From an uncultured Steroidobacteraceae bacterium (GTDB lineage: Bacteria; Pseudomonadota; Gammaproteobacteria; Steroidobacterales; Steroidobacteraceae): a stretch of DNA of 26,786 bases. The notes below the pieces were generated by a model that was not told the origin of the DNA, made no database searches, and saw nothing but the letters and a program-made list of their open reading frames with translations. Positions 5,723-26,136 of this stretch are shown piece after piece; within the stretch, counting starts at the first letter, position 1, and each line of letters starts with the position of its first letter. The translations under genes and the position numbers were made by a program. The DNA lies in the NCBI GenBank assembly GCA_964345055.1, contig CAYFPW010000001.1, positions 1 through 26,786 on the forward strand. The letters are read 5' to 3'.

Positions 5723-6387
5723 GACTCGTGCTCCTCCAGCACCACAGGCTGGCGCAGCGCTGCGCCGTCGAGCCAAGGTTCGCCGTTGCGCCACTGCAGT
5801 CGACCGGTTGCGAGCCAGTCGATCACCCGCGGGTAGATGATGTGCTCACGCTGCTGCACGCGCGCCGCCAACGTATCGGCGGTATCGTCGGGGCGGACTG
5901 CGATCCGCGCCTGCAGCAGTAGCGGGCCGCCGTCGAGCTCCGCCGTCACGTAATGCACGGTCACGCCGTGTGACGCTTCGCCTGCGGCGAGCACGCGCTC
6001 GTGGGTGTGCAGGCCTTTATAGGTGGGCAGGAGGGAGGGGTGGATGTTCAGCAGTCGTCCGGCGTAGCGCGCAGTGAATTCGGCGGACAGGATGCGCATG
6101 AACCCCGCCAGCACCACCAGTTTTGCCTCGCTGGCATCGATGGCTTCGGCCAGTGCCGTCTCGAACGACGCTTTGTCAGGGAATGATTTGGCCGGAATGA
6201 CTTGAGTCGCCAGTCCAAGGGCTTGTGCCGCTGAGATGCCCGCTGCGCTGTCGCGGTCAGCGATGACCCGCAGCACCCGCGCGTTCAATTGGCCGGCCTG
6301 GCAGGCGCGGGCGATGGCCAGCATGTTGCTGCCGCGGCCTGAGATGATGACCGCCAGGCCGAGCGGGGAGCTGGGCGTGTCAGCCAA
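5719..6387 (-). CDS. purN: Phosphoribosylglycinamide formyltransferase
   Basis: [39 protein letters not shown]. Start uncertain (TTG 6387 overlapping the purM end, or 6411). Confidence 0.95.
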
Positions 6388-9399: not shown

Positions 9400-11109
9400 C
9401 TAGGTGTTTAACCGTGCGCGAATGAAGGACACGGCCTCTGCAAGCGGCATGTCTTCGTTATCGGCAGCGCGACGGGCGCGGTACTCAAGCTGACCGTTGG
9501 CCAGTCCGCGCTCGCCAATGACGATCCGGTGGGGAATGCCCAGCAGTTCAGCGTCCGCAAGCTTGACGCCCGGGCGTGCATCGCGGTCGTCGTACAGCAC
9601 TTCGATGCCGGCGGCGGTGAAATCCGCGTAGAGCCGCTCTGCCGTGTCGCGCACCAGTTCGGATTTGTGCGCATTCATCGGGACGAGGACCACCTGGAAG
9701 GGTGCCAGCGGCGCCGGCCAGATGATGCCGCGCTCGTCATGGTTCTGTTCGATGGCGGCGGCAACGATGCGCGTCACGCCGATGCCGTAGCAGCCCATCA
9801 GCATGGTCGAGGCCTTGCCGGATTCGTCCAGCACGGTGGCGTTCATCGCTTCGCTGTACTTCCGGCCGAGCTGGAAGATGTGGCCAACCTCGATGCCGCG
9901 CACGATCTTCAGTCGTCCCTGGCCGCTCGGGCTCGGATCGCCGTCGACGACATTACGCAGATCCGCTGCTGTGGGCTCGGGCAGGTCGCGGCCCCAGTTC
10001 ACGCCGGTGAGATGGGCGTCGAGACGGTTGGCGCCGCAGACGAAGTCGGCGAGGGCCAGCGCGCTGTGGTCCGCAAAAATCGGGCACTTCAGGCCGCGGG
10101 GACCGATGAAGCCCGGCTCGCAGCCGGCGGCGGCCTGCACTTCGGCGGCGTTCGCCATGCGGAAGGGGCTGGCGACGCCCGGCAGCTTGCCGGCCTTCAC
10201 CGCGTTTAGTTCATGGTCGCCGCGCACCAGCAGCGCTACGACGCCACCGTTCTGAGCAGCCACCAGCAGCGTCTTCAGGCACTGCGCAGGTGAAACCTTG
10301 AGCGCGCTGCAGAGCTGTTCGATGCTCTTGGCATTGGGGGTATGGGCTTCGGCCAGCGGCTGGCTGGCGGCGGCACGGGCCTGCGCCGGCGGTAGCGCTG
10401 CGGCCAGTTCGACATTGGCTGCGTACTCGTCACCATCCGATGCGGCGATGGCATCTTCGCCGGAGCTGGCCAGCACCTGGAATTCTTCCGAGGTATTGCC
10501 GCCAATGGAGCCGGTGTCGGCCTGCACGGCGCGGAACTGCAATCCCATACGGGTGAACATGCGCACATAAGCGGCGCGCATGGCAGCGTATCCCTCAGCC
10601 AGAGAGGCCTGGTCGAGGTGGAAGGAGTAGGCGTCCTTCATGATGAATTCGCGGCCGCGCATCACGCCGAAACGCGGGCGGACCTCGTCGCGGAACTTGA
10701 CCTGGATCTGATAGAAGTTGGCGGGCAGCTGACGATAGCTCTTGAGTTCGGCGCGCGCCGTGGCGGTGATGACTTCTTCGTGAGTCGGACCGATGACGAA
10801 GGAGCGGTCGTGCCGGTCCTTCAGGCGCAGCAGTTCCGGGCCGTACTGTTCCCAGCGGCCGGATTCCTGCCACAGTTCCGCGGGCTGCACGGCCGGCATC
10901 AGCACTTCCATGGCACCGGCGCGGTCCATTTCCTCGCGGATGATCTGCTCCACCTTACGTAGGGTGCGCAGTCCCATTGGCAGCCAGGTATAGATCCCGG
11001 CGGCGACGCGGCGGATGAGTCCGGCGCGCAGCATCAGCTGGTGGCTGATGACTTCGGCTTCGGACGGGGTTTCCTTGACGGTATTGATCGGGTAGAGCGA
11101 GAGACGCAT
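9400..11109 (-). CDS. proS: Proline--tRNA ligase (bacterial type with INS editing domain)
   Basis: [49 protein letters not shown]. Confidence 0.97.
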
Positions 11110-11130: not shown

Positions 11131-11139
11131 TCGACTCCC

Positions 11140-11970
11140 ATGAGTACCCAACAGTCAGGACCTGAGACGGATTCCGCCCCAACGCGGGTGCCGTCACGGC
11201 GTCGCGCGATCTACCTGCTGCCCAACCTGTTCACGACGGGTTGCCTGTTTTGCGGGTTCTACGCCATCGTCGCGGCCATCGACGGCAACTTCGAGCGCGC
11301 CGGATCCGCGGTATTCGCCGCCATGCTGTTCGACACGCTCGACGGGCGGGTCGCTCGCCTGACGAACACCGAGAGCGCGTTTGGCAAGGAGTACGACAGT
11401 CTAGCCGACATGGTCGCCTTCGGGCTGGCCCCGGCCATCGTCAGTTATCAGTGGGGCGTGGCGCGCATCGCCGAATACGGCAGTGTGTGGTTCCGCTTTG
11501 GCTGGGTCGCCGCGTTCTTCTATGCCGCCTGCGCAGCGATGCGCCTGGCGCGTTTCAATGTTCGCTCGGGCAGCCAGGACAAGCGCTACTTCGAAGGCCT
11601 GCCCAGTCCTTCTGCGGCGGCCTGCGTGTCGGCATTCATCTGGTCGTTCTCGGAATGGCGCGAACCCGGGCTGCCGGGGTTGATCCTGACCTTCGTGGTC
11701 ACTGCTGCAGCCGGTGCCCTGATGGTCAGCCGTTTCAGCTATCCCAGCTTCAAGGGCATCGATCTGACCAAGCCCATCAGCTTCCTGTGGCTGGTGCTGA
11801 TTGCCGTGGTCATCTCGGCCTTTGCCAGTGATCCGCCGCGCGCATTCCTGGTGTGTTTCGGGACCTACGCGCTGTCGGCGCCGCTCATCTGGCTGGTACG
11901 GCGCGTGCGTCGCAAGCACCGGCACGATCAGCGCGGCGGTGGTTCATCCGATTCTTCGACCGCGGCCTGA
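11140..11970 (+). CDS. pssA: CDP-diacylglycerol--serine O-phosphatidyltransferase (membrane, CDP-alcohol phosphotransferase type)
   Basis: [16 protein letters not shown]...[27 protein letters not shown]. Start re-called to ATG 11140 because the ORF-track start overlaps proS. Confidence 0.92.
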
Positions 11971-11974
11971 AACG

Positions 11975-12670
11975 ATGGCGATGCAGCCGCAGCGGTACGC
12001 GCAGTACCTGGACGCGCTGGGGATCGATCTGTTCGTGCCGCGGGGCGGTGTGGCACGCGCAGCGGCGCAGGACGCACCTGCGGCTGCGGATGATGCTGCT
12101 TGGACGCAGCTGGAAACCGAGGTGCGCGGCTGCACGCTATGTGCACTGAGCCAGAGCCGCACGCAGACGGTGTTTGGCGTTGGTAACCGGCGCACTGAAC
12201 TGCTGCTGGTGGGCGAGGCCCCTGGTGCGGACGAGGATGCGCAGGGCGAGCCCTTCGTCGGGCGAGCCGGGCAACTGCTCAATGCGATCCTGCGTGGCAT
12301 GCGTTGGCCGCGACCCACGGTCTACATCGCCAATATCCTCAAGTGCCGTCCGCCGGGTAACCGCGATCCATCACCCGAAGAATCCGCCTGCTGCACGCCT
12401 TACCTGCACCGGCAGATCGAACTGATCAAGCCGCTCATGATTCTCGCGGTGGGTCGTGTCGCTGCGCAGAACCTGCTCGCCACCGAGACGCCGATCAGCA
12501 AATTGCGTGGGGTTGTGCATCGCTATGGGACGCGTGAAACGCCGCTCATCGCCACCTATCACCCCTCCTATCTGTTGCGCAGCCCGGGCGAGAAGCGCCG
12601 CGTGTGGGATGACATGAAGTTCCTCAAGGCCGAGCTGGAGAAGCGGCGCGCGGCAGCCGCGACAGGCTGA
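11975..12670 (+). CDS. Family-4 uracil-DNA glycosylase ([4Fe-4S]) with a HolD/psi-like N-terminal peptide
   Basis: Motif [25 protein letters not shown], motif [10 protein letters not shown]. Four Fe-S-type Cys (CTLC, KCRP, ACC). N-terminal [13 protein letters not shown] followed by an Ala-rich linker. Start 11975 or 11981. Confidence 0.9.
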
Positions 12671-13149
12671 TGGTTGCCGAGCCCGGCGGTGCCCTGGGTG
12701 TGCTCGAGCTGGACATCCGTCCGATGGACAGCGGCGATCTCACCGCCGTGGCGCAGCTGGAGCGCGAGAGCTACGAGTTCCCGTGGAGCGAGGGCATTTT
12801 TCGCGACAGTCTGCGAGTGGGTTATTACTGCAGCGTTCTGACTTTCGATCCAATCATTGCCGGCTACAGCGTGCTGGCGGTTGGTGCCGGCGAGGCGCAC
12901 ATCCTGAATGTCTGCGTGCGACGCGAGTTCCGCGCCCGTGGTCTCGGCGGCCGCTTGCTCGATCACCTGATTGATCAGGCGCGCGATGCCGGTGCCGGCA
13001 CGCTGTTTCTCGAAACGCGGCCGTCCAACCTGTCGGCGATCCGGCTTTACCATTCCAAGAGCTTCGTGCAGATCGGCATCCGGCGCGGCTACTATCAGGC
13101 GGCAGGTGGCCGTGAAGATGCCATCGTCATGCGTCGGCCGCTCTTCTAG
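12670..13149 (+). CDS. rimI: Ribosomal protein S18 N-acetyltransferase
   Basis: FPWS, EAHILNVCV, RARGLG, LETRPSN.SA..LY, RRGYY...GREDA. TGATG overlap with the UDG gene. Confidence 0.93.
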   Translation: MVAEPGGALGVLELDIRPMDSGDLTAVAQLERESYEFPWSEGIFRDSLRVGYYCSVLTFDPIIAGYSVLAVGAGEAHILNVCVRREFRARGLGGRLLDHLIDQARDAGAGTLFLETRPSNLSAIRLYHSKSFVQIGIRRGYYQAAGGREDAIVMRRPLF

Positions 13150-13176: not shown

Positions 13177-14787
13177 ATGAATTCTCCTGATCCCGGGCTC
13201 GCCGCGGAAATCGCGCGCCGGCGCACCTTCGCCATCATCTCGCACCCCGACGCGGGCAAGACCACGCTGACCGAGAAGCTGCTGCTGTTCGGCGGTGCGA
13301 TCCAGCTCGCCGGTACGGTCAAGGGCCGCAAGGCCGCGCGTCATGCGACTTCGGACTGGATGGCGCTGGAGCAGCAGCGCGGAATTTCCATTACCAGTTC
13401 GGTGATGCAGTTCCCGTACCTGGGTCGCATCGTCAATCTGCTCGATACGCCGGGTCACGAAGACTTCTCCGAGGACACCTATCGCACGCTGACCGCAGTG
13501 GACTCGGCACTGATGGTCATCGACTGTGCCAAGGGCGTCGAGCAGCGCACCGTGAAGCTGATGGAAGTCTGCCGCTTGCGCACGACTCCCATCATGACCT
13601 TCATCAACAAGCTCGACCGCGAAGGCCGTGCGCCCATCGAGCTGCTCGATGAAATCGAGAGTGTGCTGAAAATCCAGTGCGCGCCGATGACCTGGCCGAT
13701 TGGCATGGGCCGCTCGCTGCGCGGGATTTATCACCTGGGTGAGGATCGTATTTACGTTTACGAGGCCGCCGAGAAGGGGCGCGCCGGTACCACGCATGTC
13801 ATCGAGCGACTGGATTCGGATGAGGCGCGTGAACTGCTGGGCAACGACTGGCAGGCCTTTAGCGATGAGATCGAGCTGGTGCGCGGCGCCAGTCCGGCGT
13901 TCGACAAGCAGGCGTACCTCGCCGGTGCGCAGACACCAGTGTTCTTCGGATCGGCCATTTCCAACTTTGGTGTCCAGGAGTTGCTGACGTCCTTCGTCAC
14001 TCACGCGCCTGCGCCACTGCCACGCGCCACGCTGCAGCGTGAGGTGCAGCCGCAGGAAGAGGCGCTGACCGGCTTCGTCTTCAAGATCCAGGCCAATATG
14101 GATCCGCAGCACCGCGATCGCGTGGCGTTCTTGCGTCTGTGCTCCGGTCGGTACCGGCGTGGCATGCGCCTGTACCACACGCGCCTGCAGAAAGAGGTGC
14201 GGGTTGCCGATGCGCTGACATTCATGGCAGCCGAGCGCGTGCAGGCCGAGGATGCCTATGGCGGCGACATTATCGGTCTGCACAACTATGGCACCATCAA
14301 CATCGGCGACTCGTTCAGCGAGGGTGAGTCGCTGAGCTTCACCGGCATTCCCAACTTTGCACCCGAGCTGTTTCGGCGTGCCGTGCTGAAAGATCCGCTT
14401 CGTATGAAGGCGCTGCAGAAGGGTCTGGCGCAGTTGTGCGAGGAGGGCGCCACGCAGCTGTTCAAGCCGCTGCGCAACAATGACCTGGTACTCGGGGCCG
14501 TGGGTCAGCTGCAGTTCGAGGTGGTCGCGTTCCGACTGGCCGACGAATATGGCGTGCAGTGCGTGTTCGATGCGGTCAATGTCTACACCGCGCGCTGGGT
14601 CAAGGCACCGGATGAGAAGCGTCTGGAAGAATTCCGCGAGAAGGCCTTTGAAAACCTCGCGCTCGATCATGGGGGTGCGCTGGTCTATCTGGCGCCGACG
14701 CGGGTCAACCTGTCGCTGATACAGGAGCGCTGGCCGGATATTCAGTTCCTGGAGACACGGGAGCATCACAGTGGGTCAGCGGAATGA
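13177..14787 (+). CDS. prfC: Peptide chain release factor 3
   Basis: [46 protein letters not shown]. Confidence 0.97.
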
Positions 14788-25686: not shown

Positions 25687-26136
25687 TCAGGCGACGTTCT
25701 GTGTCGTTGGCTCGACGCCCTCGGTCCGGTATTGACGGAAGCGTGCGCGACCGGCATCGCGCCGGGCCGGCTCGGCATCGATGATTTCGATGATCTGCCG
25801 CGCGCTCTTGCGAATGCTCGGAATGGAGCCCGCGAGATTCAAGATCACATCGGGCGGGGCCGCGTCGAGCAGCCCGGTGCTGCGCGCGCCGGGGCAGGTG
25901 AGCAGCACCGGTGCTTCTTCCCAGTCCGATTCGGGGCCCAGTGGCTCGTGCGGTACGAAGCTGTCCTGCGCGAAGGTCCATAGCAGATCGTCGAAGCGGG
26001 TGACAGCATCGGCATCATCGAGCCAGACGAGTACGCGCTGTTCGGCTTCAAAGGCCTTGTCGATCACGCGGCAGGCAAACTTCCAGCGTTCGCGCTCGTC
26101 GGTGCCGCCCAGCACATAGAAATCCACACGCTCCAT
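25687..26136 (-). CDS. holC: DNA polymerase III subunit chi
   Basis: RVDFYVL, FDDLLWTF..DSFVPH, ILNLA, C-terminal GRARFRQYR..G. Directly downstream of pepA, with GGAG SD. Confidence 0.92.
   Translation of the reverse strand: MERVDFYVLGGTDERERWKFACRVIDKAFEAEQRVLVWLDDADAVTRFDDLLWTFAQDSFVPHEPLGPESDWEEAPVLLTCPGARSTGLLDAAPPDVILNLAGSIPSIRKSARQIIEIIDAEPARRDAGRARFRQYRTEGVEPTTQNVA

Follow-up and report, generated by a model that had tools for sequence, protein, structure and literature searches.

The DNA analyzed herein (the window) is a 26,786-nucleotide stretch from the genome of an uncultured Steroidobacteraceae bacterium, and the gene that concerns us encodes a uracil-DNA glycosylase (UDG) of family 4, hereafter the window UDG. 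The protein begins with a peptide like the one by which psi (HolD), a subunit of the DNA polymerase III clamp loader, docks onto that complex, and its gene occupies the position that holD takes in Escherichia coli, ahead of rimI and prfC (Table 1). Our results suggest that a psi-like function of the window UDG is probable; binding to the chi subunit and to DnaX, glycosylase activity, and a role for the tethering of that activity are what we infer for it.

The reading frame of the window UDG is open throughout, and rimI begins on the base with which the UDG stop codon ends (TGATG, window positions 12668-12672), which implies that the two genes are translationally coupled. The E. coli locus is arranged in parallel: holD lies directly upstream of rimI, which it overlaps by 32 nt (positions 6186-6217 of the E. 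coli locus, L020), with prfC nearby, and the order holD-rimI-yjjG-prfC, which a first-pass annotation of the window had stated, was verified in NC_000913.3. The local claims of that annotation held as well. Specifically, translation and motif positions put the UDG and its motifs where the annotation had placed them, the neighboring genes (a TIGR01575 match and a prfC match) bear out its statement that the UDG stands directly upstream of rimI and prfC, and holC (chi) does lie at the coordinates it had given, on the minus strand. On the other side of the UDG gene, and directly upstream of it, lies a pssA-like CDP-alcohol phosphatidyltransferase gene (window positions 11134-11970, plus strand), from which proS (9400-11109, minus strand) diverges.

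The source genome (G000) is a metagenome-assembled genome (MAG) of 1.78 Mb in 312 contigs, 91% complete. It encodes a DnaX with the collar domain III, and the window UDG is its sole match to the UDG superfamily (PF03167); no family-1 Ung was detected in this 91%-complete assembly. The first-pass annotation had suggested looking for a separate holD, and none was found there either: the Pfam psi model PF03603 had no match at E ≤ 10, and a hidden Markov model (HMM) of psi proteins (described below), run against all six-frame open reading frames (ORFs), recovered only the UDG ORF (E 5.3e-7; next best E 8.8).

Table 1. Features of the window UDG and of the genes linked with it (window positions).
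Feature	Position	Strand	Remarks
Coding sequence of the window UDG, a 231-aa family-4 UDG with psi-like N-peptide (UDG4-N)	11975..12670	+	Homologue of holD by position and sequence
Psi-like N-peptide, residues 11-23, F20 at psi W17 position	12005..12043	+	Homologous to the psi peptide that docks on the clamp loader (E. coli LQQLGITQWSLR)
Ala/Pro-rich linker, residues 24-42	12044..12100	+	Low model confidence
CxxC (C53, C56)	12131..12142	+	First two [4Fe-4S] ligands; invariant in family
Catalytic motif A GEAPG, residues 80-84	12212..12226	+	
Helix, residues 97-109	12263..12301	+	Aligns with psi LVSDVLRAL; half of the predicted chi interface
C124 and C140	12344..12346 and 12392..12394	+	Remaining [4Fe-4S] ligands; invariant in family
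Catalytic motif B HPSYLLR, residues 196-202	12560..12580	+	
C-terminal helix, residues 201-215	12575..12619	+	Aligns with psi NPTARAALWQQI; other half of the predicted chi interface
rimI	12670..13149	+	TIGR01575, 111 bits; translationally coupled to the UDG gene; same downstream neighbor as E. coli holD
prfC (RF3)	13177..14787	+	Completes synteny of the holD-rimI-(yjjG)-prfC type
holC (chi)	25687..26136	-	Predicted partner; adjoins pepA and valS

The glycosylase body and its relationship to psi

Judging from its sequence, the body of the protein is that of an apparently active [4Fe-4S] family-4 UDG. It matches the Pfam UDG model PF03167 over residues 67-214 (E 2.3e-35) and scores 204.6 bits against the NCBIfam model TIGR00758 (UDG_fam4), above the cut-off of 125.3. 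Beyond catalytic motifs A and B, it carries PFVGRAG (residues 93-99, with the stacking Phe) and ANILKCRPP (residues 119-127, with the uracil-recognizing Asn), and it has cysteines at positions 53, 56, 124, 139, and 140. Across 32 orthologues, GE.PG, F94, N120, H196-P197, and the four ligand cysteines are invariant. The AlphaFold (AF2) model, with a predicted local distance difference test score (pLDDT) of 91.9, superimposes on the solved enzymes of Thermotoga maritima (1L9G, 1VK2), Sulfolobus tokodaii (4ZBX), and Thermus thermophilus (UDGA, 1UI0) with Z of 28.8-29.7, a root-mean-square deviation of 1.2-1.9 Å, and 36-44% identity (43-44% for 1UI0 in the structural alignment); in sequence alignment, 1UI0 gave E 1.5e-44, and 1L9G was also aligned. 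These family-4 UDGs have the fold and all catalytic and Fe-S motifs in common with the window UDG. However, they align only from window UDG residue 34-48 onward, with no counterpart of its N-peptide and linker of ~40 residues, and none of those enzymes, be it from Thermus, Thermotoga, or Sulfolobus, is known as a replisome subunit.

This N-terminal extension has its likeness in psi. E. coli psi (HolD; PF03603; PDB 1EM8, 3SXU with chi) also begins with an L-x-x-[LM]-G-I-x-x-aromatic-x-x-R peptide. The psi N-terminus binds domain III of three DnaX subunits (PMC3290774), and a passage of the same review describes the peptide as bound to the clamp-loader collar in 3GLI. In our profile alignment, the N-peptide of the window UDG pairs in register with psi residues 9-20, F20 replacing the Trp (W17 in E. 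coli) that is invariant in psi. That Trp is also the majority residue of the UDG family, where the aromatic position is W in 74% and Y in 15% of sequences, with F in the window UDG and its nearest relatives. Further, among the 120 closest database homologues, nearly all that are full-length have (Q)YL(E)ALGI(D)xW(V)PR at their start, followed by a linker and then the UDG domain, the linker varying among orthologues both in sequence and in length (~10 to >100 aa). Across the six-frame translation of the source genome (2.68 million residues), the UDG ORF holds the single match to the pattern L..[LM]G[IV]..[WFY]..[RK].

The relationship extends well beyond the peptide. We assembled a bona fide psi set (n = 11) from E. 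coli HolD and ten PF03603-matching ORFs of other families, leaving out two UDG-like ORFs; L9, W17, L53, and W122 are invariant among these proteins. Profile comparison (hhalign) of the 11 psi proteins with 32 UDG4-N proteins gave 98.7% and E 3.6e-16 over 147 collinear columns, and the cores alone, with the N-peptides cut from both sets, gave 97.4% and E 1.1e-11. The psi HMM scored 27 bits against residues 30-231 of the window UDG, and, in the other direction, the UDG4-N HMM picked out bona fide psi ORFs of two genomes, with genome-wide E values of 1e-7 and 5e-9. The core helices and strands of E. coli psi are collinear with those of the window UDG: L101/L102 stand opposite the invariant psi L53, and residues 203-214 pair with psi NPTARAALWQQI, bringing W211 opposite the invariant psi W122. 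We regard homology and positional orthology of the window UDG to psi as close to certain.

Psi is the smaller protein (137 aa in E. coli, compared with 231 aa for the window UDG), and the window UDG retains what psi is without: the Fe-S ligands (CxxC...C...C), GEAPG, the pocket for uracil, and HPSYLLR. Several natural intermediates were found between these states. An ORF of 186 aa (L008, G216:C91) is a decayed family-4 UDG that scores above the PF03603 cut-off and lacks the cluster cysteines (...IMIIGEALDEQGEP...VVGQVAAQHLL...IVTYDTAYLLRTPKDKRKAFEDL); a psi from another genome (L002, G229:C7) retains HPSHLL (TFHPSHLL); and a 346-aa ORF (L014, the same as L133; G191:C25) joins the psi peptide to a decayed UDG body. 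PF03603 (model positions 2-28) also matches the N-terminus of intact family-4 UDGs in 5 of the 250 genomes introduced below, and 8 of the 32 UDG4-N family members match it at E ≤ 1 (best 1.9e-5), with the genome-search matches covering the N-peptide only. The PF03167 superfamily was matched in 13 of 14 control genomes. These intermediates and the widespread occurrence of catalytic family-4 UDGs indicate that the change ran from UDG to psi, and that no second UDG or family-1 Ung was detected in the source genome fits the idea that a family-4 UDG decays to psi where another UDG exists.

The comparisons above bear on four points raised by the first-pass annotation, all of which they support: that the N-peptide lies in register with psi, with F at the W17 position; that this motif is conserved among orthologues; that the C-terminus parallels psi; and that the psi of enterobacteria is a decayed UDG, for which both the core-only profile homology and the natural intermediates argue.

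Distribution among genomes and the predicted link to chi

We surveyed 250 genomes spread evenly over the families of the same GTDB class. Because the sampled genomes are related, the counts are descriptive and not statistical; the class tallies include one unpublished genome (G039), on which no specific claim rests. The UDG4-N family HMM matched 195 of the 250. Among the 150 best matches, each from a different genome, the N-peptide was spanned in 112, and in three further matches that were checked a longer linker separates the peptide from the UDG domain. The peptide was present at all of the 30 best loci, which represent 30 families, and rimI lay directly downstream on the same strand at 29 of them; rimI likewise follows psi at 8 of the 12 psi loci. 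The full order of pssA-like gene, UDG, rimI, and prfC recurs in a genome of the same GTDB family as the window (L148, G023:C7:58500-62500), where the N-peptide reads YLEAMGIDAYARR and motif A is altered to GEAPT, along with EVFSGRAG. At three loci from genomes of 4-7 Mb in the same class (L138, L140, and L142, from G316, G149, and G283, respectively), the two genes stand in the opposite order, rimI lying upstream of the UDG; there, the N-peptide (e.g., RAMLAEMGVRVWAPK) precedes a Pro/Ala-rich linker of ~100 aa or longer and then the UDG domain. We provisionally take these large-genome lineages to be Burkholderiales (the former Betaproteobacteria).

Family-4 UDGs from another class of the same phylum (L141, L143-L146) present a different conserved N-terminal motif, YLREIGVQTPVSL, which resembles YLxxxG[IV] without an aromatic residue, and no rimI was seen within the ~1.5-kb flanks examined. 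This motif may be a variant tether in lineages without a known psi.

A full-length psi match was found in only 12 of the 250 genomes, none of which has an intact N-peptide UDG4; eight of them lack any family-4 UDG, and one (G227) has a separate UDG4 that is without the peptide and away from rimI. Within the sampled genomes, UDG4-N and classical psi exclude each other, in keeping with the phyletic anti-correlation that the first-pass annotation had put forward as a check.

Chi was found in 206 of the 250 genomes, and the UDG family was matched in 178 of these 206, versus 17 of the 44 chi-negative genomes. Five genomes (G175, G179, G229, G041, and G049) have a PF03603 psi match and no PF04364 chi match at E ≤ 0.001, which reflects either a very divergent chi or a psi that is present without chi.

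A complex with HolC, another check put forward in the first-pass annotation, was predicted with an ipSAE of 0.81 for window HolC and window UDG (0.80-0.82 in three runs), against 0.00 for the best control; of 78 solved complexes, 51 attain the ipSAE mark applied, as do 2 of 108 mismatched pairs. On the UDG side, the confident predicted interface comprises residues 97-109 and 201-215, the same two helices that are conserved with psi and that have their equivalents in E. coli psi. On the chi side, it comprises residues 29-30, 50-62, and 74, including W53, S59, F60, and P62. W53, F60, and P62 did not vary in any of the 19 chi sequences compared; in the chi of 5 psi-type and 13 UDG-type genomes, they are invariant and S59 is nearly so, while the predicted chi interface overall is not enriched in conservation (0.61 vs 0.59 for the whole protein).

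A proposed psi equivalent and its rivals

We consider it fairly likely that the window UDG is a bifunctional protein, at once an active [4Fe-4S] family-4 UDG and the equivalent of psi in the DNA polymerase III clamp loader. In the manner of the homologous E. coli psi peptide, residues 11-23 would attach to the collar that the DnaX3-delta-delta' subunits form with their C-terminal domains, and the flexible linker would join this docking peptide to the UDG body. The body, in turn, would bind chi with the two conserved segments that UDG4 and psi share, helices 97-109 and 201-215, and chi would then bind the tail of SSB, the protein that binds single-stranded DNA, so that uracil excision would be tethered to the replisome. 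From such a protein, the classical psi found in enterobacteria and related bacteria would have descended by decay, losing the Fe-S cluster and the active site.

This proposal bears on a gap in the literature. Alpha-, beta-, and gammaproteobacteria all have chi, but psi can be detected in the gammaproteobacteria alone (PMC3290774), where it has been recognized in no more than a subset, and several chi-bearing genomes have no findable psi (PMC3197488); two reviews leave open how chi is anchored elsewhere (PMC3290774; PMC3197488, citing Gulbis 2004). The UDG4-N family would offer a concrete answer to this question, along with a DNA-repair-enzyme origin for psi. The wider claim seems to us evenly balanced between true and false: that the psi-peptide family-4 UDG is the ancestral and still predominant psi across GTDB Gammaproteobacteria, apparently including the large-genome lineages, and so the "missing psi" of chi-containing proteobacteria, with the catalytically dead psi of E. 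coli as a derived exception. If true, most of these bacteria would have an active uracil glycosylase as a stoichiometric clamp-loader subunit, a large share of proteobacteria would possess a clamp loader with replication-coupled uracil removal built in, as a bacterial counterpart of vaccinia D4 and UNG2-PCNA, and genes upstream of rimI that are now annotated as "uracil-DNA glycosylase" or "DNA polymerase" would have to be renamed. Pseudomonas aeruginosa and Acinetobacter baylyi cannot do without psi (PMC3290774, PMC8879598), which makes the interface one of interest for replication studies.

Several observations weigh against a psi role for the window UDG. Owing to the F in place of the invariant psi Trp, its N-peptide by itself reaches no more than 5.4 bits with the psi HMM, and residues 1-30 found no match at E ≤ 10 among all PDB chains (phmmer). 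When close homologues supplied 106 N-peptides for an 18-column HMM, which was searched against the ORFs of 12 psi loci and the E. coli locus, two psi N-termini did rank first, but only at a non-significant E of 0.1-0.3, the family used being too narrow. The window UDG as a whole has no match at E ≤ 1 to PF03603 or to the NCBIfam psi models and falls below the psi cut-offs. In an exhaustive structural comparison (VIA) against 48,161 PDB representatives, E. coli psi (3sxu_B) ranked 22nd, with 101 of 102 residues aligning to model residues 70-223, and its Z of 6.2 is within the range of generic alpha/beta folds; this match fits a shared fold and favors the link to psi without deciding it. A Foldseek-seeded VIA list had only UDGs in its top 50. 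The predicted structure of one psi protein (L003, from an 11-sequence alignment) reached a pLDDT of only 64.5. The first-pass annotation had treated the UDG-like fold of psi as established, which was not confirmed: the structural score is low, and a full-text literature search, which took in neither subscription literature nor fold databases, found no paper linking psi/HolD to a UDG.

Further points of the same kind concern the genome and the partner. The source genome is an incomplete MAG, so the absence of holD or ung from it is only provisional. The near-complete genomes G023, G100, G166, and G236 encode an N-peptide UDG4 with no detectable chi (in G023, which is 100% complete, none was found with PF04364 or the window chi protein as query). 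Strict co-occurrence of the N-peptide with chi is thereby ruled out; the peptide is not strictly tied to chi, and it may serve clamp-loader docking independently of it. The predicted complex may owe its score to the predictor having learned the solved chi:psi complex, so the score speaks for likeness and not for binding. Finally, motif B lies right beside the predicted chi interface (L201, P204, G205), which makes the simultaneous binding of chi and DNA uncertain.

Some of these points are equally what one would expect if the window UDG were a housekeeping family-4 enzyme whose N-peptide tethers some other partner, or the clamp loader alone, with no bridging to chi, chi being anchored otherwise and the psi likeness reflecting common ancestry only. 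Under this explanation, which we judge unlikely, a sole UDG with intact catalytic motifs and N-peptide UDG4s in genomes without detectable chi would need no further comment, and the interface helices are indeed conserved in Thermus UDG4 too (AGQLLNRIL; the W in KHLTWLD), from a lineage that gave no chi match in the control genomes, as was also the case for Thermotoga. It sits poorly, however, with the contrast between the modeled chi complex and its controls, with the higher share of family matches among chi-positive than among chi-negative genomes, with the retention of the psi slot and psi peptide across ~30 families, and with the want of any other psi candidate in the source genome. The opposite simplification, a structural psi that keeps the UDG fold and Fe-S cluster as a scaffold and either excises no uracil in vivo or has a changed substrate, appears quite improbable to us. 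Relatives do show a graded decay (GEAPT and VFSG in G023, GEAPN in L018, and full decay in L008 and L014), but every catalytic and cluster residue is invariant in the window UDG and 31 orthologues, structural alignments give 40-44% identity to characterized UDGs, and no other UDG was found in the source genome.

The remaining rivals concern the peptide itself. Its IDLF is similar to the final residues of the pentapeptide that binds the clamp, with its QL[SD]LF-like consensus (here ...GIDLF), and the N-peptide could then be a beta-clamp-binding motif instead of a clamp-loader peptide, a sliding-clamp tether of the sort that PCNA provides for archaeal and human UDGs. We give this little credence and rejected it on family conservation: family-wide, the last position is mostly W, the preceding one is variable (L 35%, R 32%), and no starting Q is conserved, while the peptide lies in register with the DnaX-binding peptide of psi and is recognized by the Pfam psi model. 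That the psi resemblance arose by chance or convergence is scarcely credible. The peptide is short and its lone score weak for the window UDG, but the profiles match end to end and in the cores alone, UDG4-N and psi both adjoin rimI, intermediates exist, and the motif is unique in the source genome; the profile matches, the rimI synteny, and the uniqueness of the psi HMM match effectively refute this explanation.

Comparison with known systems

Within psi itself, a close parallel to the proposed bifunctional protein is the "cryptic" psi of P. aeruginosa (PA4679, 278 aa; Jarvis 2005; El Houry Mignan 2011, PMC3197488), a long psi that has a conserved clamp-loader peptide at its N-terminus, together with a linker that is disordered and a core that binds chi. 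It escapes ordinary homology searches (PMC8879598) and, unlike the window UDG as we read it, is described as non-enzymatic; the likeness is by description only.

UDGs and UDG folds are also found in other replication machines, specifically in the E9-A20-D4 holoenzyme of vaccinia virus and at the N-terminus of the phiLo family-A DNA polymerase. Human UNG2, with PCNA/RPA, is a replisome-tethered UDG. Vaccinia D4, the phage polymerase domain, and UNG2 belong to other UDG families and have other partners and modes of attachment, which makes them analogies to the proposed tether and not homologues of it. In our fold search, vaccinia D4 (8q3r_D) scored Z 10.4, and the UDG-like domain of the phiLo polymerase (9qhs_A) scored Z 15.5-16.6.

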